Positions 10,971 to 24,546 of a DNA stretch of 29,877 nt are shown here, in pieces; the first letter of the stretch is position 1; the number at the start of each line of letters is the position of its first letter. Origin of the DNA: Candidatus Kerfeldbacteria bacterium (GTDB lineage Bacteria; Patescibacteriota; Patescibacteriia; SBBC01; CAIJZX01). Location of the stretch: contig JACRFO010000024.1 of NCBI GenBank assembly GCA_016217865.1, positions 1 to 29,877 on the forward strand. The letters run 5' to 3'. Below the pieces are notes generated by a model that was not told the DNA's origin, searched no databases, and worked only from the letters and a program-made list of their open reading frames with translations. A program made the position numbers and the translations under genes.

Positions 10971-11902
10971 AGCACCGACTGGTCATATTTGGTTCCAGCG
11001 CTTTCGGGCTGCCGGCTTTTTCTGTCATGGCCAAGCATCCCGCGATGGAAGTAGTCGGCGTCATTAGCCAACCAGATCGCCCTCAGGGACGTCACCACGA
11101 ACTCACCCCAACACCAGTCAGTGCATGGGCGCGTGAAAGTAGTCTACCGTTGTGGCAATTTCCTTCGTTACAGGAATCCGCTATCCAGGAACGACTCGCT
11201 GCTCTGCGTCCCGATATCGCGCTGGTCGCGGCCTATGGTTTGATTTTACCGTCCGCTGTCCTCTCCATCCCATCGCGGGGATGCATCAACATTCACGGGT
11301 CGCTTCTGCCCCGTCACCGCGGCGCCAGTCCGATCGCCGCCGCCATCGCGGAAGGTGATGCCATGGCCGGGATCAGCTACATGCTCATGGACGCCGGTGT
11401 TGATACCGGCCCAGTCATCCATAAGTACGCGCTCCCCCTCCATGCAGACATCACCCACCCCGAACTTGAGCAGGCACTCTCTGACTTAGCTGGGAAAACC
11501 ATCCAGACCGCGATCGATGGTTGGCTGGATGGAACGTACGTTCCGGTTGCGCAAGATAATCAGTTGGCCACACGTTGTTCACGACTGACGAAAGAAGATG
11601 GCCGGGCGCATTGGGATTCCGGTCGGCGTTTATCCCGTCTCATCCGCGCCTATACTCCCTGGCCGGGCGTTTGGACCGAGTGGAACGGACAAGCCATAAA
11701 ACTCCTTGCAGCCACGTACGAAGCGACCACACCAACCGCCAAGCCCGGCACTGTTGTACAACTCGAACAACGGCGTTGGGGTATCATGTGCGGAGACGGA
11801 ATCATTGTACCCAGTCTTGTTCAATTTCCCGGTAAGAAACCACAACCGGCCGCCACCGTTCCCGGCAGCTACCCAACTTTCATCGGCACTCAGCTCAACT
11901 AG
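10967..11902 (+). CDS. fmt: Methionyl-tRNA formyltransferase
   Basis: VISQPDRPQGR, VAAYGLIL, INIHGSLLPRHRGASPI, MDAGVDTG, LTKEDG, IRAYTPWPG; ATGA-coupled to def. Confidence 0.96.
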   Translation: MKHRLVIFGSSAFGLPAFSVMAKHPAMEVVGVISQPDRPQGRHHELTPTPVSAWARESSLPLWQFPSLQESAIQERLAALRPDIALVAAYGLILPSAVLSIPSRGCINIHGSLLPRHRGASPIAAAIAEGDAMAGISYMLMDAGVDTGPVIHKYALPLHADITHPELEQALSDLAGKTIQTAIDGWLDGTYVPVAQDNQLATRCSRLTKEDGRAHWDSGRRLSRLIRAYTPWPGVWTEWNGQAIKLLAATYEATTPTAKPGTVVQLEQRRWGIMCGDGIIVPSLVQFPGKKPQPAATVPGSYPTFIGTQLN

Positions 11903-13413
11903 CTCCGACTCTTCTCGGTTACGAAGAAACCGAGATACTTGCCAAACATCAAGCGCGTTTGCGCCTCAATCGCCGGAATAGACCCGAAGACAATCATCGT
12001 CACTGGCAATAACAGCCACTGGCCAATCATCATCACGTACTGGTACCGCGGAATGTGCTGCGGCCGTTTTGGCAACATGACGGTGCTGATGATAGCGGAC
12101 AAGAGCAACCCGAGCATCGCCCCGGACATCAGCCGTTGCAGGATCAGCGGTGCATTATTTGCCAAAACCGAACTTTCCAGCGCCACCCGGTTTGCCGCAA
12201 ACGGCAGCCAGCCGAGCAGCAGGATCAGCAGCGGCGCCGTCGCCCAAGAGTAGGTTCCTTCGAACTGGTTCCAACTGTACTTCAGTTTTGTCCGGAGTGG
12301 GATGCGGTGGTTGTGCCGGAAGTTCCACAGCATGAACGGTAAGTTTTCTGCACCGTACGCCCAACGGCGGATTTGTTTGTACTGGTTGACCAAGCTGCGC
12401 CAAATGGATGGAGCTTGGACGGTGTCCATCGAAATAGGAATGTACATCGGCGTGACGGTGTAGTGACCGTCGTAATGGATGAAACACTGTAAGAATATCC
12501 GCGAATCTTCCGAAACGACGTCGTTTTGCCAAAACCCAACATCGACCAGTGCCTGAAACGGCATGCTGTGTGAGGAAAAGGTGAAGAGTCGGTCGGGACG
12601 CATCGTATCGCCAAGCAACCAGAAGGTCGTACTGGTCGCAACGACCCGCATCAACGCCATCGCGTCCCAGATGTTGTTGTGGAACAGCGGGATCGGCTGG
12701 TAGCTCGTGTGGAGCTTGTCGGGGTGGGTCGCGTACGTATAGGCCAGGTACGAGAAGTAGTGTGGATGAGCGACCGAATCTGCATCAAACGTCGAAACGA
12801 TGACGTGGTCGTAGGGAATGTGCAGCCGATCCACTAACTCCTTGGCCTGCCGCCCGGCCCAGGCGATGTTCGCACCTTTACCAGCTACTTCACCCGGGAG
12901 ATCAGCTGGGTGCTCAACCGTCAGCACCTGGCCGAAGGTACCGGAAAAGTGTTTCGTGACGTTAGCCATCAAGTCGGCCGCGTGTTCATGGTATCGTCCT
13001 TCGGTCGCGACCACGACGATGAAACGATCGAGCGGGTAATCGATCTTCGATAACGATGTCAATGTTTCGCGTAACACCTCCCACGGCTCATGCGCAATCG
13101 GGATCATAATCAAGTGGTGGAGCGACTGCCAGTCCGGGACGGTGTGGAGCCGTTCTGGCCAATCGACTCGCAGTGCGGCCTGGTAACGACGGAAGCCCAT
13201 CACCAAGTACGATCCGACGTAGATGACCCGCACCACCCAGTAGACGTCGAACACGACAATGAAGGCGATGGCCCACAGCGGAGCAAAGAAACTCACCGCA
13301 ATCGCTAACACTAAACTGCCCCAAACCGCTAATCCGGGGAATATTTCTAAGACACGGTACGCTCGCCGTTCAGACAGCCAGTCGAGTCGCCAGAAACGAG
13401 AAAAGACAGTCAT
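11899..13413 (-). CDS. Polytopic GT2 glycosyltransferase, processive-synthase type
   Basis: N-terminal TMs, GKGAN, TFDADS (DxD), VSEDS, QIRRW (QxxRW), several C-terminal TMs; converges on fmt with a 4-nt CTAG overlap. Confidence 0.85.
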   Translation of the reverse strand: MTVFSRFWRLDWLSERRAYRVLEIFPGLAVWGSLVLAIAVSFFAPLWAIAFIVVFDVYWVVRVIYVGSYLVMGFRRYQAALRVDWPERLHTVPDWQSLHHLIMIPIAHEPWEVLRETLTSLSKIDYPLDRFIVVVATEGRYHEHAADLMANVTKHFSGTFGQVLTVEHPADLPGEVAGKGANIAWAGRQAKELVDRLHIPYDHVIVSTFDADSVAHPHYFSYLAYTYATHPDKLHTSYQPIPLFHNNIWDAMALMRVVATSTTFWLLGDTMRPDRLFTFSSHSMPFQALVDVGFWQNDVVSEDSRIFLQCFIHYDGHYTVTPMYIPISMDTVQAPSIWRSLVNQYKQIRRWAYGAENLPFMLWNFRHNHRIPLRTKLKYSWNQFEGTYSWATAPLLILLLGWLPFAANRVALESSVLANNAPLILQRLMSGAMLGLLLSAIISTVMLPKRPQHIPRYQYVMMIGQWLLLPVTMIVFGSIPAIEAQTRLMFGKYLGFFVTEKSRS

Positions 13414-13421
13414 CGCGGCTC

Positions 13422-13450
13422 ACTCTACCACAACTTGGCCATCATGTCTA
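13422..13450 (-). promoter_or_regulatory. Sigma70 promoter of the GT2 gene
   Basis: TAGACA (13450-45), 17 nt, TG-G-TAGAGT (13427-22); ATG follows after 8 nt. Confidence 0.65.
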
Positions 13451-14950
13451 TCGTCCAATCGTGATAATCGTGTGGAGGCGTAACGCTTGTCTCGCCAGCG
13501 CAAGCCGATCAGCCGTAACTGCATAGAGCGTCAGGAGAGTCTGTCCGCGCTTAACGCGATCCCCGAGCTTCTTGTGTAAGTAGATGCCCGCCCGTTTTTG
13601 GTCTGGCGCACCCAAGGTTCTCGCTATTTCATCAATCGCGCGATTATTGATCGCGGAGACCCGGCCAGTCGCCGATGCTTTGACGTCCGCTGTTAACGTC
13701 CCGGCCAGGAGTTCATCAGCATCAACTAGCGGATTTCCGCCCTGCAGCTTGATAATCTGCTGCATCTTTGCCCAGGCCCGACCGCTGCGAAGCGCTTGCG
13801 TCGCGATTGCGTATCCTTTGCCCGTTGTACAAAACGAGGACAGTTCTAAGAGTTCGCCAGCCAGGCCAAGCGCCTTTTCCTCCAGGTCGCGCGGCCGGTT
13901 GTCCTTCTGTTGGAGGACTCGGAGCACATCGCGCGCCTCGAGGGCTGGCCCGATCCCCTGACCAATCGGTTCATTAGCCCGATCAAATTTGACCCGGACC
14001 GAAATACCAAACGCGCGGCCAACGTCGCGGAACCTTTGCTCTATTTTCCGACCCTCAACGAGGCTAGATATTTTTGTCCCTGGTCCGTACGGGAGATCGA
14101 TAATCAGGTAGCGTACCCCCATCGCCACTTTCTTAGCCATGATACTGACGATCATTTTATCGTACGGCTCGAGCGACAACGGTCGCGAGACACGGATAAT
14201 GATGTCGTCTGCCGGGGCAATGCTCAACCCGCCACCCCAGATGAGGCAGCCACCGGCCTGACGGACGATCCGTCGAACGGCCGCGCCGTCAAAACTGACC
14301 GGCGCCAGGACTTCCATCGTATCAGCCGTGCCTGACGGCGATGTGATGGCTCGCGACGAGGTTTTTGGGATGAGGAGGCCGAGGGAGGCGATAATCGGTA
14401 TCGCCACCATTGTTGTCCGGTTCCCGGCAAGTCCGCCAACCGAATGCTTGTCGACCACGAGTCGGCGTCGCCAGGTAAACATTTCTCCGGTTTCAGCCAT
14501 TGCTCGGACCATGCCCACTAACTCCCGCGTCGTATACGGCTTGATGTACCCCGAAGCAACAAAGTAGGTCGTCTCAATCGCACTCAAGCGATGACTGACG
14601 ATATCCGAGATGATCGAGTGAATCTCACTCGCCGTGATCTCTTTACCGAGCAGTTTCTTCTTAATCGCGGCGATTGATGGCGGACGCGCGAGAACATCAA
14701 TGGTAACGGTTTGGCCGTCAGTAGGCTTCAGTATCCGCCACAAGTCAGTAAAGACGCCAATTTCGCCGTGGCGGATGGAGTGGTGCGTAATATCAGCAAC
14801 CGCAGTGATTGTCCGTTGCTGGTAGCGGATCTGCAGGCGATCGCCTGGGGTAATCCCAAACGCATCAGCATCACGGCCACGGAGCAGGACAACCTGCGTA
14901 TCGCCACCGGTGTCGATATCAATCCGCCGGATGTTGAGAACAAACGCCAT
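13448..14950 (-). CDS. deoA: AMP phosphorylase (archaeal-type thymidine phosphorylase family, ~500 aa)
   Basis: N-terminal extension with GDRLQI, DKHSVGGLAGNRTT, KTSSRAITSPSGTADTMEVLAPV, SIMAKK, IGQGIGPALEARDVL, AGIYLHKKLGD. Confidence 0.92.
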   Translation of the reverse strand: MAFVLNIRRIDIDTGGDTQVVLLRGRDADAFGITPGDRLQIRYQQRTITAVADITHHSIRHGEIGVFTDLWRILKPTDGQTVTIDVLARPPSIAAIKKKLLGKEITASEIHSIISDIVSHRLSAIETTYFVASGYIKPYTTRELVGMVRAMAETGEMFTWRRRLVVDKHSVGGLAGNRTTMVAIPIIASLGLLIPKTSSRAITSPSGTADTMEVLAPVSFDGAAVRRIVRQAGGCLIWGGGLSIAPADDIIIRVSRPLSLEPYDKMIVSIMAKKVAMGVRYLIIDLPYGPGTKISSLVEGRKIEQRFRDVGRAFGISVRVKFDRANEPIGQGIGPALEARDVLRVLQQKDNRPRDLEEKALGLAGELLELSSFCTTGKGYAIATQALRSGRAWAKMQQIIKLQGGNPLVDADELLAGTLTADVKASATGRVSAINNRAIDEIARTLGAPDQKRAGIYLHKKLGDRVKRGQTLLTLYAVTADRLALARQALRLHTIITIGR

Positions 14951-14952
14951 GG

Positions 14953-15927
14953 TTACCGTTTCATCACTGCAACCGGGTCAGGGATACGTCGGCTGTGGAG
15001 AATGCCGATCTTTGCGCCGATGTGGCGAATGACGGATTCTGAATTGGCCGTAGCAAATTGCAAGGACAGCGGAATGTTCCCGCGGGAACGGATAAACGTC
15101 GCAACGAAACCGCTGGTAAATGCATCCCCTGCCCCAGTCGTATCAACGACGTGGATTGGGTGCGTAGTCGAACGCCAGCTGTCTGAACGGTGGCCAGCAA
15201 GGGCGCCTTCTGTACCACCGGTGACAATTGTCACACCATCAACGATTTGCCGGAGCTTATCGAAGCTGGCTTCGTCTTGCTCATATCCGAAACCCATCAA
15301 TCGGGCGGCTTCTTCTTGATTGACGTGGAGAATACTCGTTTGGCTCAAGAGCGGCATCAGCCGCTTCAACCCGAGCGCTAATTCGCCGACACCAGGATCC
15401 CAAGCAATCTTCATGTGGTGCCGAGCTGCATGGGCCCAGATTTTCTTCAGCACAGGCAACTTCCCAGCTAACGACGAAACATACAACCACTGGCTGCGAA
15501 CCTTCGTCCATGGGAAATCTTGTGGGTGAAAATCTGCTGACGCACCTCGGTAGACAAGGGCCGTACGCTCGCCACGGGCAGTTAGTAACAGTACCGAGTA
15601 CGCCGTCGATTTCCGCCGATCGCGTTTCACCAGAGTCGTGGCGATGCGCTCTTGCCGTAAGGCGGATAGGATCTCGCGTCCTCGCGCATCAGTGGCGCCG
15701 ATCTTCCCGAGGAAGCCGGTTCGCAATCCCTGACGAGCAAAAGTAACGGCAGCGTTCGTCGCACCGCCGCCAGTTTCGAAGACGATCTCTTCGACATCAA
15801 TTTTCGAACCGAGTGCAAAGCACTCCCCTTCTCCGGTTGAGAACGAATCATCGCGAACAATTCGGATCCCTCGGCTGCGCAGGAAAACGTCGCGCGTCGC
15901 CGCTCCTATGGTGATGACGTCGTACAT
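14953..15927 (-). CDS. PfkB family carbohydrate kinase
   Basis: GGGATNAA and DTTGAGDAF signatures, N..EA motif. Confidence 0.93.
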   Translation of the reverse strand: MYDVITIGAATRDVFLRSRGIRIVRDDSFSTGEGECFALGSKIDVEEIVFETGGGATNAAVTFARQGLRTGFLGKIGATDARGREILSALRQERIATTLVKRDRRKSTAYSVLLLTARGERTALVYRGASADFHPQDFPWTKVRSQWLYVSSLAGKLPVLKKIWAHAARHHMKIAWDPGVGELALGLKRLMPLLSQTSILHVNQEEAARLMGFGYEQDEASFDKLRQIVDGVTIVTGGTEGALAGHRSDSWRSTTHPIHVVDTTGAGDAFTSGFVATFIRSRGNIPLSLQFATANSESVIRHIGAKIGILHSRRIPDPVAVMKR

Positions 15928-15930
15928 GGG

Positions 15931-16773
15931 TTAGCCCTTTCCCCGACTACCGAATAGAATCATCTTCTGTTTGACGACTTCCATCATTTCTTGCCGGCCA
16001 GAGATCAGGTACTCGCGCGGATCGTAAACAGACCTGTCACGTAATACGCGTCGGACTGCACGGGTAAAGGCTAAACGTAGATCGGTGTCAATATTGATTT
16101 TACAGATTCCGAGTTGCACCGCCCGGCGAATACTCGCTGGGGACGTACCGGAGGCCCCGTGGAGAACTAACGGGACGTTGACTGCCGCTCGGATGCGCTT
16201 CAGGAGACCGAAGTGGAGCCGCTCGCCCGGCACCGGTAAACCGTGACTATTACCAATCCCAACCGCCAACGCATCAACCTTCGTCCGCCGAACAAAGTCC
16301 ACCGCTTGGTCTGGTGTGGCCAAGACCGGAACAGCGGATTTTGCTAAATCCTCCTTGTATTTCACTTGACCTATTTCGCCTTCGGTTCCGATCTGGAACC
16401 TTGCCGCGCGGCGCTTAACCCGGGTTGTGACGGCTACGTTTTGTTCGTAGGACAGCTTTGACCCATCGAACATGATGCCCGTCCATCCATGCCGTAGACA
16501 CTGATCAGCAGCAAGGTAACTCCGGCCGTGATCAAGGTTGAGGACCAACGGGACGCGAACCTGTTTCGCGAGCGAGCGGACAATAGCGGCGAGGTCAGCG
16601 TGCCCGGCGTAAGCAATTGCCTTTTCCGAAGTGTTGATGATGGCTGGAGAGCGAAGATCAGCGGCCGCGGCGACAACGGCTTGAATGTGCTCGAGGTTCG
16701 AGACATTAAACGCGCCAACAGCATATCGACCACGCTGGGCTTTCCGGAGAACCGACTGAAGCGTTGCTAACAT
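15931..16773 (-). CDS. fba: Class II fructose/tagatose-bisphosphate aldolase
   Basis: YAVGAFN, LDHG, MFDGS, EGEIG, GNSHG, LVLHGASG, KINIDTD. Confidence 0.93.
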   Translation of the reverse strand: MLATLQSVLRKAQRGRYAVGAFNVSNLEHIQAVVAAAADLRSPAIINTSEKAIAYAGHADLAAIVRSLAKQVRVPLVLNLDHGRSYLAADQCLRHGWTGIMFDGSKLSYEQNVAVTTRVKRRAARFQIGTEGEIGQVKYKEDLAKSAVPVLATPDQAVDFVRRTKVDALAVGIGNSHGLPVPGERLHFGLLKRIRAAVNVPLVLHGASGTSPASIRRAVQLGICKINIDTDLRLAFTRAVRRVLRDRSVYDPREYLISGRQEMMEVVKQKMILFGSRGKG

Positions 16774-16779
16774 AGCTCT

Positions 16780-16788
16780 AGTATATCA
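16780..16788 (-). promoter_or_regulatory. Extended -10 (TG-A-TATACT) 6 nt before the fba ATG, overlapping the rpe stop codon
   Basis: Minus strand reads CG TGA TATACT AGAGCT ATG. Confidence 0.6.
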
Positions 16789-17430
16789 CGATTTGACCGT
16801 TCGGGTGAACCGCAGCAACTCGCGCCAACGTTTCGCCGGCGTAGCTGACAGCATCACCGAGGAACCGATCGTGAACTCTTTGGCGCCAGCCGCGATGAGC
16901 CGACCGATTGTCCGACGGTTCACCCCGCCGTCTACGGACAACGGTACCCCAGGATAACGGAGAATTGTTTCACGAATGCGTCGGTCAGCTTTGGCGATAA
17001 GTGGTGCATGGTAGTGCCCCGGGTGGACGGTCATAAGTTGAATTCCGTCGACCAGTTTCAGGACTGGACGCAGCCGTGACAGTGGCGTTGACGGATTAAT
17101 GGCGACAACCACCGAGCAACCGGTTCGGCGGATGGACCGGATCGCCGTTATAACATCACGCGACTCGATGTGCACAACAACGGTCGACGGACGGGCTGAC
17201 CGGATCACTGGCACCCAATCCAACGGCCGGGAAACCATCAAATGGAACATAACCGTATGGGATTGGAAGCGATGAGACAAAATGTTCGGGCCGACCGATT
17301 TCGTCGGTACAAAGGCACCGTCCATGATGTCGACATGAACCCGCCGACTCAAACGAGTGGCCAGACGAAACCGCCGACGGTACGACGGCGCTGTAGCCGC
17401 CAGCACAGACGGGGTTAATCTAACGGGCAT
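16786..17430 (-). CDS. rpe: Ribulose-phosphate 3-epimerase
   Basis: PSVL, HVDIMDGAFVP, HLMV, AINPSTP, MTVHPG, VDGGVN, GSS. The likely start ATG 17430 overlaps the rpiB stop. Confidence 0.9.
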   Translation of the reverse strand: MPVRLTPSVLAATAPSYRRRFRLATRLSRRVHVDIMDGAFVPTKSVGPNILSHRFQSHTVMFHLMVSRPLDWVPVIRSARPSTVVVHIESRDVITAIRSIRRTGCSVVVAINPSTPLSRLRPVLKLVDGIQLMTVHPGHYHAPLIAKADRRIRETILRYPGVPLSVDGGVNRRTIGRLIAAGAKEFTIGSSVMLSATPAKRWRELLRFTRTVKS

Positions 17431-17866
17431 GTTCGATACGCGAGATTTCACGCAGACGTCGCTGGTAGCGAGCGATCGGCCGGTATGGTTGTTTCAGCCA
17501 CAGTCGAACGATACGCTTCATTTCAGTAATCGATTGAAAATCCGATGCCAGCGATAGGACGTTCGTCTTTTCATCTCGACGGCTGCGCTGTGCGACCCGA
17601 CTGGACCATCCTTGGACAGCGCGGACTCCTTCAAATTTATTGGCAACGAGAGCCATCCCCACTCCCGAGCGGCAAACCACCACGCCAACGGCGTGACGGT
17701 CTTGTTGAATTGTCCGCGCTAAACGAGCCGCCCAGATCGGGTAATCATCGGTCGGCGTCAACCGAGCTGGACCAAGGTCAATAACTGGCTGGCCACTCCG
17801 GCGCAACCAGGCTACGAGTAGCTGCTTCTTGGTAAAACCTCCATGATCAGCCGCGATGTAGACCAT
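17420..17866 (-). CDS. rpiB: Ribose-5-phosphate isomerase B (RpiB/LacAB family), divergent
   Basis: IAADHGGF, DLG, DDYP, CRSGVG, ANKFEGVRA, TNVL; TG-C-TATACT lies 6 nt before ATG 17866. Confidence 0.88.
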   Translation of the reverse strand: MVYIAADHGGFTKKQLLVAWLRRSGQPVIDLGPARLTPTDDYPIWAARLARTIQQDRHAVGVVVCRSGVGMALVANKFEGVRAVQGWSSRVAQRSRRDEKTNVLSLASDFQSITEMKRIVRLWLKQPYRPIARYQRRLREISRIEHAR

Positions 17867-17881
17867 AGAACTAGTATAGCA

Positions 17882-17912: not shown

Positions 17913-18371
17913 CTATTGGACGATGACCGTGCCCTGGAATTTGCTATTCGTACTGTCGTCGTGATCGTGGTAGCCGAAGCTCCCCGTTCGCGTAAACGTG
18001 AAGGAGTAACTCGAACCGTTGGCGACGCCCGACAGACTATCAAATCCCGGGTAGCCGGTATGCGTCGGATGCGGATTTGAGGAGATCTGGTGTGCCGTTG
18101 AGTCGTTGTTCACGAACTTGACGGTATCGCCCGCTTTGATCGTCACAGTCTTCGGTGACACACCGCTCGAGGTAATAGTTACCGTCTGGGCGGTGACCGA
18201 CGGGGTGGTCGTGAACGAACCGGTCGTAGAACTATTCGTCGAGAGTGACGTATTGACATTGGTCGTCACGGTAACATTCGTGTTGCCGGTCGTAACGTTG
18301 GACTTGAACGAACAAGCCGCGCCGAACAGTACCAGCGCCCCTAGACCGACGAGTAAACGTGCGTGTTTCAT
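17913..18371 (-). CDS. Cupredoxin-fold lipoprotein
   Basis: Lipobox FGAAC (Cys20), T/N/S-rich linker, P.TVTIKAGDTVKFVN.D...H, YSFTF...G.FGYHDH, GTVIVQ; GGAGG SD. Confidence 0.8.
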   Translation of the reverse strand: MKHARLLVGLGALVLFGAACSFKSNVTTGNTNVTVTTNVNTSLSTNSSTTGSFTTTPSVTAQTVTITSSGVSPKTVTIKAGDTVKFVNNDSTAHQISSNPHPTHTGYPGFDSLSGVANGSSYSFTFTRTGSFGYHDHDDSTNSKFQGTVIVQ

Positions 18372-23978: not shown

Positions 23979-24506
23979 CTAGCGCCGAAATTTGACGTAG
24001 ATAAGCTCATCAATCAGGCGGCCGCGTTTATTGAAGTGTTTGATCAGCAGCGCTTCACGCTTGAATCCCGCCTTTTCGAGAACGCGGGCAGAACCGATAT
24101 TGAAGCTGAAGACGTGCGCATCAATCCGGACCAGTCGGTAGCGACGAAACGCGTAGGCGGTGAGGAGACGAACTACCCGGGTCATGATCCCCTGCCCCCA
24201 GTACGGCCGGCCTAACCAGTACCCAAGTGTTCCGCGCTGTCCATCAAGGTCAATCCCGATGACACCAACTATATGTCCATCGATTTCAATACCAAGGTGG
24301 AGCCGATCGGCCTTTTTCTGACGGTACTCGCGCTGTAACACCTTCAGCCAACTCGTCGCATGCGACTTACGGTACGGCGACGGCAATGCTGCAGTGTTGC
24401 GGGCAATCCCGCGGTCGTTGGCATACGTGGCCATGGAATCAGCATCCGACAGTCGCAGGTGGCGGAGTGTAATCGGACCAGAGTGGAGGGTGAAGGGCTT
24501 CTTCAT
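23979..24506 (-). CDS. GNAT N-acetyltransferase, RimJ/RimL family
   Basis: LRHLRLSDA, LGYWLGRPYWGQGIMT, NIGSARVLEKAGFKRE; TG-C-TATACT lies 6 nt before the ATG. Confidence 0.9.
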   Translation of the reverse strand: MKKPFTLHSGPITLRHLRLSDADSMATYANDRGIARNTAALPSPYRKSHATSWLKVLQREYRQKKADRLHLGIEIDGHIVGVIGIDLDGQRGTLGYWLGRPYWGQGIMTRVVRLLTAYAFRRYRLVRIDAHVFSFNIGSARVLEKAGFKREALLIKHFNKRGRLIDELIYVKFRR

Positions 24507-24546
24507 GTATTCAGTATAGCAAAAAACATATGACGTTGGTTATGAG

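Follow-up and report, generated by a model that had tools for sequence, protein, structure and literature searches.

What becomes of ribose 1,5-bisphosphate (R15P), the product of AMP phosphorylase, in a bacterium in whose genome neither RuBisCO nor R15P isomerase is found? The question is raised by a 29,877-nt stretch of DNA from a Candidatus Kerfeldbacteria bacterium (contig JACRFO010000024.1 of assembly GCA_016217865.1; "the window" below means this whole stretch), in which a long run of minus-strand genes contains five tightly packed ones: rpiB, rpe, fba, pfkB and the gene for AMP phosphorylase. The answer that we favor, with slightly less than even confidence, is that the PfkB-family kinase and the Fba aldolase act as a pair in place of phosphofructokinase (PFK) and transaldolase, with AMP phosphorylase feeding in nucleotide ribose.

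The locus and its distribution across Patescibacteria

The source genome (G000) is a metagenome-assembled genome (MAG) of 836 kb in 127 contigs with 88.9% completeness, and the runs in which the stretch occurs are all groundwater DNA runs from one study. It was analyzed together with 11 relatives from its family, of which several are 96–100% complete in 2–20 contigs (n = 12, hereafter the Kerfeldbacteria family), and some searches, including that for phosphoribosyl pyrophosphate (PRPP) synthetase, used a subset of five (G000 and G005–G008). Co-occurrence of AMP phosphorylase, RuBisCO and R15P isomerase was counted over 401 evenly sampled Patescibacteria genomes, and 151 sampled Patescibacteria genomes, among which related ones are non-independent, were searched with a PfkB profile. 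A PfkB scan of 185,579 species genomes supplied the 27 best species-level matches, whose neighborhoods were read over 10 kb around the kinase. Domains were assigned with Pfam, and curated score cut-offs were those of NCBIfam. The genes in question are the following:

17420–17866, minus strand: rpiB, RpiB/LacAB-family sugar-phosphate isomerase of 148 aa (PF02502, 116.9 bits; TIGR00689)
16786–17430, minus strand: rpe, ribulose-phosphate 3-epimerase (PF00834, 121.2 bits), with ATG at 17430 and an alternative GTG at 17451
15931–16773, minus strand: fba, class II ketose-bisphosphate aldolase (PF01116, 310 bits)
14953–15927, minus strand: pfkB, ribokinase-superfamily sugar or sugar-phosphate kinase (PF00294, 127.7 bits) of a subfamily that is spread throughout the Candidate Phyla Radiation (CPR) and has no curated function
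13448–14950, minus strand: AMP (nucleoside monophosphate, NMP) phosphorylase of 500 aa, N-terminal domain included (TIGR03327)
11899–13413, minus strand: GT2-family glycosyltransferase (PF13632, PF13641), outside the pathway, at the downstream edge of the AMP phosphorylase insertion site

A preliminary description of the stretch had read five co-oriented genes with one 11-nt overlap and gaps of 12, 3 and 2 nt, and both the open reading frames (ORFs) and a reading of each junction bear this out: rpiB (ATG 17866, stop TAG 17420) runs into rpe, which starts at ATG 17430; rpe and fba are separated by 12 nt and fba and pfkB by 3 nt; and only "cc" lies between the TAA of pfkB and the ATG of the phosphorylase gene. 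The enzyme identities it had assigned hold at the family level in both Pfam and NCBIfam. The aldolase covers positions 2–277 of the 277 in the PF01116 profile and passes the cbbA subfamily model TIGR00167 (260.3 vs a cut-off of 215.6 bits), but stays below the fructose-bisphosphate aldolase (FBA) equivalog TIGR01859 (299.2 vs 343 bits). AMP phosphorylase passes its own equivalog, AMP_phos TIGR03327 (552.8 vs 535 bits; 508–553 bits for orthologues in the Kerfeldbacteria family), and aligns with the Thermococcus kodakarensis enzyme (4ga5) over residues 7–485 (E = 4.6e-111). Thymidine and pyrimidine-nucleoside phosphorylases lack the N-terminal domain of ∼84 residues; here the domain is present, with the 4ga5 alignment beginning at residue 7 and those to pyrimidine nucleoside phosphorylases at about residue 95.

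Gene order is fixed within the family. All nine Kerfeldbacteria family loci with enough contig read TrxR, (small genes), cupredoxin, rpiB, rpe, fba, pfkB, AMP phosphorylase, GT2, fmt. Relatives whose PfkB is 48–50% identical show the order (rpiB)-rpe-fba-pfkB-GT2-fmt-def-priA with no AMP phosphorylase gene, and one further orthologue of the kinase sits between a split transketolase and fba. Of the best 27 species-level loci, 19 encode at least one of rpiB, rpe, tkt and fba no more than 10 kb from the kinase, and the complete order rpiB-rpe-tktN-tktC-fba-pfkB occurs in five Saccharibacteria loci. The PfkB profile matches 114 of the 151 phylum genomes (∼75%), mostly in single copy, and AMP phosphorylase and R15P isomerase are each found in ∼10% of sampled genomes; among the loci compared, AMP phosphorylase stands beside pfkB only in the one Kerfeldbacteria family. 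The kinase thus belongs to the core of a pentose-phosphate operon found throughout the phylum, and AMP phosphorylase is an addition peculiar to this family, placed between pfkB and the gene for the glycosyltransferase. The preliminary description had taken the cluster for a dedicated AMP phosphorylase pathway, which the phylum-wide occurrence of rpiB-rpe-(tkt)-fba-pfkB contradicts; the five-gene synteny, whose conservation it proposed to test, is kept within the Kerfeldbacteria family but, with AMP phosphorylase included, not across Patescibacteria.

A second type of nucleotide-cleaving gene occupies the same end of the operon elsewhere. In the Saccharibacteria loci L054, L056 and L057, a LOG/SLOG-family gene (PF03641, PF18306) directly follows pfkB, and characterized LOG/SLOG members cleave nucleoside 5'-monophosphates to base and ribose 5-phosphate. 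The attachment of two unrelated enzymes of nucleotide-cleaving type at the same operon end in different lineages supports the idea of an operon that burns nucleotide ribose. LOG-family genes were not found in four near-complete Kerfeldbacteria family genomes. G000 has one LOG-family match (PF03641/PF18306) on a 4.8-kb contig with 54% GC (C33:3423–3929, plus strand), which may be peculiar to the strain or may have strayed in during binning.

Promoter-like boxes bear on how the operon is transcribed. The sequence TATACT-N6-ATG occurs three times in the window (0.28 expected; none of 100 shuffles reaches three), two of the copies lying exactly at the start codons of rpiB and fba:

17864–17878, minus strand: TATACT-N6-ATG at the rpiB start, candidate leaderless promoter
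16771–16785, minus strand: TATACT-N6-ATG, −10-like box at the fba start, candidate leaderless promoter for fba-pfkB-AMP phosphorylase
24504–24518, minus strand: third copy of TATACT-N6-ATG, ahead of the ORF at 23979–24506

A TAnnnT hexamer is found 6–8 nt before the fba ATG in all nine Kerfeldbacteria family loci that hold fba, and TATACT precedes rpiB in 4/9, with no comparable box ahead of pfkB or AMP phosphorylase in the family loci. A generic scan for promoters and terminators did not rise above shuffled sequence (7 vs 4.7 ± 2.1 and 8 vs 8.6 ± 3.3, respectively). Boxes abutting start codons would fit leaderless mRNAs. The −10 element noted earlier before fba is thus real as a motif, being enriched and conserved in the family, and the fba-pfkB-AMP phosphorylase transcript proposed from it is plausible and, judged from these motifs, appears the likeliest transcription unit: AMP phosphorylase is probably co-transcribed with fba-pfkB, given the 2-nt gap, the lack of a −10 box of its own and the conserved box before fba.

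Three further observations concern the neighborhood. Just upstream of rpiB lies a gene for a cupredoxin-like protein of 152 aa (17913–18371, minus strand), a surprising protein for a fermentative CPR genome; it is also near the cluster in L039 and L045. In several Paceibacterota and Saccharibacteria, a conserved ORF of ∼415–424 aa with no Pfam match stands between pfkB and fba (L037:4574–5848, L042:1137–2384, L046, L047 and L066). Four MAGs labeled "uncultured Gammaproteobacteria" (L044, L045, L055 and L065) carry CPR-type rpiB-rpe-(tkt)-pfkB clusters with GT2-fmt synteny, and their labels look wrong.

AMP phosphorylase and the search for its partners

The preliminary description had found neither RuBisCO nor R15P isomerase in the window, and genome-wide searches extend this to the genome and its relatives: the RuBisCO large subunit (PF00016) and the eIF2B-like R15P isomerase (PF01008/IF-2B) each have no match in the 12 Kerfeldbacteria family genomes, G000 included. 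The same searches are able to detect the canonical trio of AMP phosphorylase, RuBisCO and R15P isomerase, whose genes are neighbors in four genomes of the same class but other families. The phosphorylase itself is present in 11 of the 12 family genomes (10 of the 11 relatives) and is kept across at least seven genera. In the AMP phosphorylase tree the family's genes form a single clade (100/100) that branches from a class-level polytomy, grouping with class-level CPR AMP phosphorylases that adjoin RuBisCO and R15P isomerase; with such a polytomy, gain by transfer and retention with loss of the partners are both compatible with the tree.

Across the 401 Patescibacteria genomes, AMP phosphorylase occurs in 39, of which 28 have both partners, two have the isomerase only and nine have neither. 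These nine span at least six families; two belong to the Kerfeldbacteria family, and among the rest are three other families with full-length or N-terminally truncated forms. AMP phosphorylase without its known partners is therefore a recurrent minority state and not an assembly artefact, and, where both RuBisCO and R15P isomerase are missing, R15P must have another fate. No recurring metabolic partner stands beside the gene in the other AMP phosphorylase-only lineages examined; its neighbors in G028 and G034 include a CAP-domain protein, an S11 peptidase, MnmA and LUD/CCG proteins. N-terminally shortened homologues of ∼430 aa occur at loci L122–L126 (genomes G143, G213, G331, G342 and G389), in genomes without a RuBisCO or IF-2B match. 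YceG (MltG-like) is a neighbor in every case, and MurJ and FtsK often are; these homologues may have a function other than that of AMP phosphorylase.

Other enzymes that could handle R15P or its relatives are likewise scarce. PhnN has no match over cut-off in five Kerfeldbacteria family genomes, and a DeoB-type phosphopentomutase has none in all 12, so that ribose 1-phosphate (R1P) released by purine nucleoside phosphorylase (PNP) lacks its classical fate. PRPP synthetase (TIGR01251), which the preliminary description had listed among the genes to look for, exceeds its cut-off in one of five genomes (G005) and not in G000; in the other four (G000 and G006–G008) only short phosphoribosyltransferase-motif matches were found, in ORFs of 158–240 aa, which suggests that most of the family is unable to make PRPP by the usual route. 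AMP phosphorylase is therefore best seen as a feeder particular to this lineage, and none of the known consumers of its product was found in the Kerfeldbacteria family genomes searched.

The proposed kinase–aldolase pair and competing explanations

Central carbon metabolism in these genomes has characteristic gaps. PF00365 phosphofructokinase, transaldolase (TAL_FSA) and GlpX-type fructose bisphosphatase (FBPase) are each absent from the five Kerfeldbacteria family genomes searched. Transketolase (Transketolase_N) is present in all five, encoded in G000 on contig C116 outside the operon, and triose-phosphate isomerase (TIM) and glyceraldehyde-3-phosphate dehydrogenase (GAPDH) are present in all 12. 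The TIM and GAPDH genes adjoin each other in G000 (C38:16998–18727), a pairing seen in the 11 other family genomes as well. With no PFK, transaldolase or GlpX-type FBPase, we see nothing else that could supply the aldolase with its bisphosphate substrate, and without a substitute for transaldolase, transketolase cannot connect pentoses to trioses. Among the options raised in the preliminary description, a sedoheptulose bisphosphate bypass of transaldolase formed by PfkB and Fba fits this gene content best.

From the family-level identities, gene content, synteny and distribution observed here, we infer the substrate specificities and the direction of flux as follows. PfkB would phosphorylate C1 of fructose 6-phosphate and sedoheptulose 7-phosphate, and the class II aldolase would cleave the resulting bisphosphates to dihydroxyacetone phosphate (DHAP) and either glyceraldehyde 3-phosphate or erythrose 4-phosphate. 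Together with transketolase, the pair would drive pentose phosphates irreversibly to triose phosphates, to be taken on by TIM and GAPDH. AMP phosphorylase would split scavenged AMP, CMP and UMP into base and R15P, which would enter the pentose-phosphate pool, most simply as ribose 5-phosphate through a not-yet-recognized phosphatase or mutase.

The kinase is compatible with such a role without being assigned to it by similarity. The superfamily motifs GG, NxxE and TGAGD are kept, with G53–G55, N203/E206 and T264–D268 invariant (alignment A1). It is not a PF00365 PFK, and neither the window PfkB nor five orthologues reach any NCBIfam equivalog; if PfkB is a PFK, then it is an independent PfkB lineage. 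Identity to any reviewed enzyme is at most 26%, the nearest being YdjH (26%), followed by IolC and KdgK, all kinases that make substrates for aldolases. Solved structures match at best at E = 1e-18 (1tyy, ribokinases, YdjH and sulfofructose kinase). The AlphaFold model has a mean confidence (pLDDT) of 78.5 with the lid regions (12–53 and 108–127) poorly modeled, and Foldseek against Swiss-Prot returns YdjH, IolC, ribokinases and KdgK at TM scores of 0.70–0.76, which do not discriminate among them. Three of five Kerfeldbacteria family genomes (G000, G007 and G008) encode no PfkB-family protein besides the operon kinase. Among PfkB-positive genomes of the phylum, 97/114 have no transaldolase and 107/114 no PFK; transaldolase is found in 15% of kinase-positive vs 38% of kinase-negative genomes (odds ratio 0.29, Fisher p = 0.005), an association that is indicative only, the genomes being non-independent.

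Several points weigh against this interpretation. The best NCBIfam match of PfkB is ribokinase, above the Pfk-2/1-PFK clade (TIGR03168, 63.9 vs 216.4 bits; TIGR03828, 57.3 vs 292 bits), with no curated functional model reached. Transaldolase occurs in 17 PfkB-positive genomes and PFK in seven, so the kinase is not a strict substitute for either. TrxR, cupredoxin, GT2 and fmt, which are unrelated to the pathway, are as syntenic as the five genes, and adjacency within one family is therefore weak evidence of coupling. AMP phosphorylase is not beside pentose genes in G028, G034, G066 or the genomes with the truncated form. Finally, an enzyme taking R15P to ribose 5-phosphate was not found, so that the link between AMP phosphorylase and the operon is a gap and not a finding.

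The similarity scores invite a different explanation, namely that PfkB is a divergent ribokinase feeding free ribose to rpiB-rpe-tkt, that the aldolase works independently in gluconeogenesis or glycolysis, and that the adjacency of AMP phosphorylase is thematic at most. Besides the best NCBIfam match, the orthologues are named "ribokinase" by JGI, a ribokinase is drawn in a published CPR metabolic map (PMC7143001), and ribose catabolism would be at home in an operon that has rpiB, rpe and tkt. The score, however, is only about one third of the equivalog cut-off (TIGR02152, 107.7 vs 299.65 bits; CPR orthologues 109–126). In an alignment to Staphylococcus aureus ribokinase (3ry7), PfkB lacks the Lys of GGKGAN and has Ala opposite the ribose-binding Glu, the ribose-binding residues being those we take from Escherichia coli RbsK; this alignment argues against a canonical ribokinase. 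Moreover, the kinase lies directly beside fba in many independent lineages, and the aldolase would be left without a source of substrate in the absence of PFK, GlpX and transaldolase. We consider this explanation unlikely.

The proposed kinase–aldolase route may also be part of a more far-reaching scheme, a third variant of the pentose bisphosphate pathway. R15P would here be converted to a pentose monophosphate by an unrecognized enzyme, or in a secondary reaction of PfkB or a mutase, and would then follow the transaldolase-free PfkB/aldolase route; the conversion might conserve the glycosyl-phosphate energy. Although we consider this scheme unlikely, it would imply that a cell without PRPP synthetase, PFK, transaldolase, RuBisCO and DeoB could live on scavenged nucleotides, perhaps also in other AMP phosphorylase-only Patescibacteria.

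Alternatively, AMP phosphorylase could be uncoupled from the operon, trimming the adenylate or NMP pool or freeing bases in the manner of AMP nucleosidase, with R15P hydrolyzed non-specifically and the position of the gene accidental and kept by general synteny. The nine of 39 genomes without both partners, from at least six families, are in keeping with this, as are the CAP-domain, LUD/CCG, YceG and MurJ genes that surround AMP phosphorylase in other lineages that have it alone and the equal synteny of unrelated flanking genes in the Kerfeldbacteria family. The 2-nt gap, the missing −10 box ahead of the gene and the conserved box before fba suggest co-transcription instead. In Saccharibacteria, moreover, a LOG/SLOG gene holds the corresponding place, which suggests that a nucleotide-cleaving enzyme is selected for there. 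We regard an uncoupled phosphorylase as rather improbable.

The tight pfkB-AMP phosphorylase junction would equally suit PRPP-independent nucleotide interconversion, in which PfkB acts as an R1P kinase and AMP phosphorylase runs in reverse, joining R15P and base to NMP and phosphate; a nucleoside-to-NMP route of this kind, via R1P kinase and reverse AMP phosphorylase, is recognized in Thermococcus (PMC9700705). The rarity of PRPP synthetase in the family (1/5), the presence of PNP in three of five genomes together with the lack of DeoB in all 12, and a haloarchaeal ATP-R1P kinase model as the second-best match of several PfkB orthologues all speak for it. Yet the scores against R1P-kinase models fall far under their cut-offs (84 vs 330 and 53.4 vs 500 bits), PNP was not found in G000 or the 99%-complete G008, and the conserved partners of PfkB are fba, tkt, rpe and rpiB. 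Distribution points the same way: the kinase is found in about three quarters of the 151 genomes, mostly without AMP phosphorylase or R15P isomerase (∼10% each), and is absent from the six genomes of family f51, which has the RuBisCO trio. The earlier suggestion that PfkB makes R15P from R1P thus fits poorly, and we regard this route, though a live competitor for this family, as quite improbable.

The preliminary description had also proposed that R15P is funneled without carboxylation, a divergent RpiB serving as R15P isomerase ahead of PfkB and the class II aldolase. The substitutions on which this rested are real. RpiB passes TIGR00689 (120.1 vs 88.3 bits) and not the equivalog TIGR01120 (94.6 vs 138.65 bits); aligned to RpiB structures, it keeps the Asp-His pair and the catalytic Cys (CRSGVG), but the equivalent of His99, assigned to ring opening, is Asp, the next Asn is Glu, and GRHQRR reads ARYQRR, so that RRDEKTN stands opposite R(Q/E)H(D/N)NAN of solved RpiBs. 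Among 25 aligned RpiBs from such clusters, however, most CPR lineages show His replaced by Asp or Glu whether or not AMP phosphorylase is present, and a minority keep His (L045, L054, L060 and L067). In this alignment the substitution is a phylum-level peculiarity unlinked to the phosphorylase, which removes the basis of the proposal. R15P is locked as a furanosyl 1-phosphate, and isomerizing it, as the eIF2B-like R15P isomerase does, needs chemistry unlike the aldose–ketose isomerization of RpiB. Despite our finding no other R15P-consuming enzyme, this funnel is highly improbable, the more so as the known non-carboxylating route needs an R15P isomerase, a ribulose 1,5-bisphosphate (RuBP) phosphatase and an aldolase of FucA type, not FBA type (PMC9700705).

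Implications and comparison with known systems

CPR reconstructions invoke a pentose-phosphate "workaround" for the missing PFK and transaldolase, which cannot run without transaldolase; an operon PfkB acting as proposed, present in about three quarters of the sampled genomes, would close both gaps. CPR papers report the missing PFK and transaldolase and tried ROK and ADP-PFK alternatives, and those consulted name no PfkB substitute (PMC7304191, PMC6031116, PMC7143001). We found no paper that brings together sedoheptulose bisphosphate and the Candidate Phyla Radiation, or pfkB, transaldolase and Saccharibacteria; the literature searched was incomplete, and this is no proof of novelty. AMP phosphorylase in CPR has so far been read only as a feeder of RuBisCO, and about a quarter of the sampled genomes that encode it have neither partner, which suggests that an R15P enzyme has gone unrecognized and that episymbiotic bacteria may draw carbon from scavenged nucleotides. 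Two predictions follow: a PfkB-type kinase of fructose 6-phosphate and sedoheptulose 7-phosphate in most Patescibacteria, and an R15P-consuming step yet to be found.

The NMP shunt of Thermococcus kodakarensis and many CPR, composed of AMP phosphorylase, R15P isomerase and form III or II/III RuBisCO, shares its first enzyme with the locus described here. Its second and third steps were not found in any of the 12 Kerfeldbacteria family genomes, however, and the AMP phosphorylase gene of this family follows pfkB in a pentose operon instead of adjoining RuBisCO.

The haloarchaeal non-carboxylating pentose bisphosphate pathway starts with guanosine phosphorylase and R1P kinase and proceeds through R15P isomerase, RuBP phosphatase and a FucA-type aldolase (PMC9700705, Sato et al. 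2022); among haloarchaea, NMP phosphorylase is reported solely from species that have RuBisCO (PMC9700705). The likeness lies in a RuBisCO-free use of nucleoside ribose, a PfkB-family kinase and an aldolase end that makes DHAP. The aldolase in the window, in contrast, is a class II FBA (PF01116) and not of FucA type, and of the remaining haloarchaeal enzymes the search covered R15P isomerase, which was not found.

The sedoheptulose 1,7-bisphosphate bypass of transaldolase is established in Entamoeba histolytica and cellulolytic clostridia, where a kinase phosphorylates sedoheptulose 7-phosphate and fructose 6-phosphate at C1 and an aldolase cleaves both bisphosphates (PMC7029132, PMC12203962). 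The Kerfeldbacteria family resembles these organisms in gene content, lacking transaldolase (0/5), having transketolase (5/5) and encoding a kinase and an aldolase of the type that acts on fructose and sedoheptulose bisphosphates. Whereas the established bypass uses a PPi- or ATP-dependent PFK of the PFK-A superfamily, the candidate here is an uncharacterized, operon-encoded PfkB, and the route, if its kinase step depends on ATP, would run only in the direction of pentose breakdown.

The pairing of a PfkB-family kinase with a PF01116-family aldolase whose substrate it makes has precedents in YdjH/YdjI and IolC/IolJ, YdjH being, by fold and sequence, the reviewed protein nearest to the window kinase, with IolC next. 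These pairs differ from the present one in their low identity, in substrates that are keto-acid sugars or inositol catabolites, and in having no pentose-phosphate context. A further counterpart is the Saccharibacteria operon rpiB-rpe-tktN-tktC-fba-pfkB-LOG/SLOG, which has an orthologous kinase (30–43% identity), the same partners and a gene of nucleotide-cleaving type after pfkB; in the Kerfeldbacteria family, by comparison, tkt lies elsewhere, and the added gene encodes a phosphorylase yielding R15P in place of a hydrolase-type enzyme expected to yield ribose 5-phosphate. The locus is thus a variant of known systems, an NMP shunt grafted onto a transaldolase-free pentose operon.

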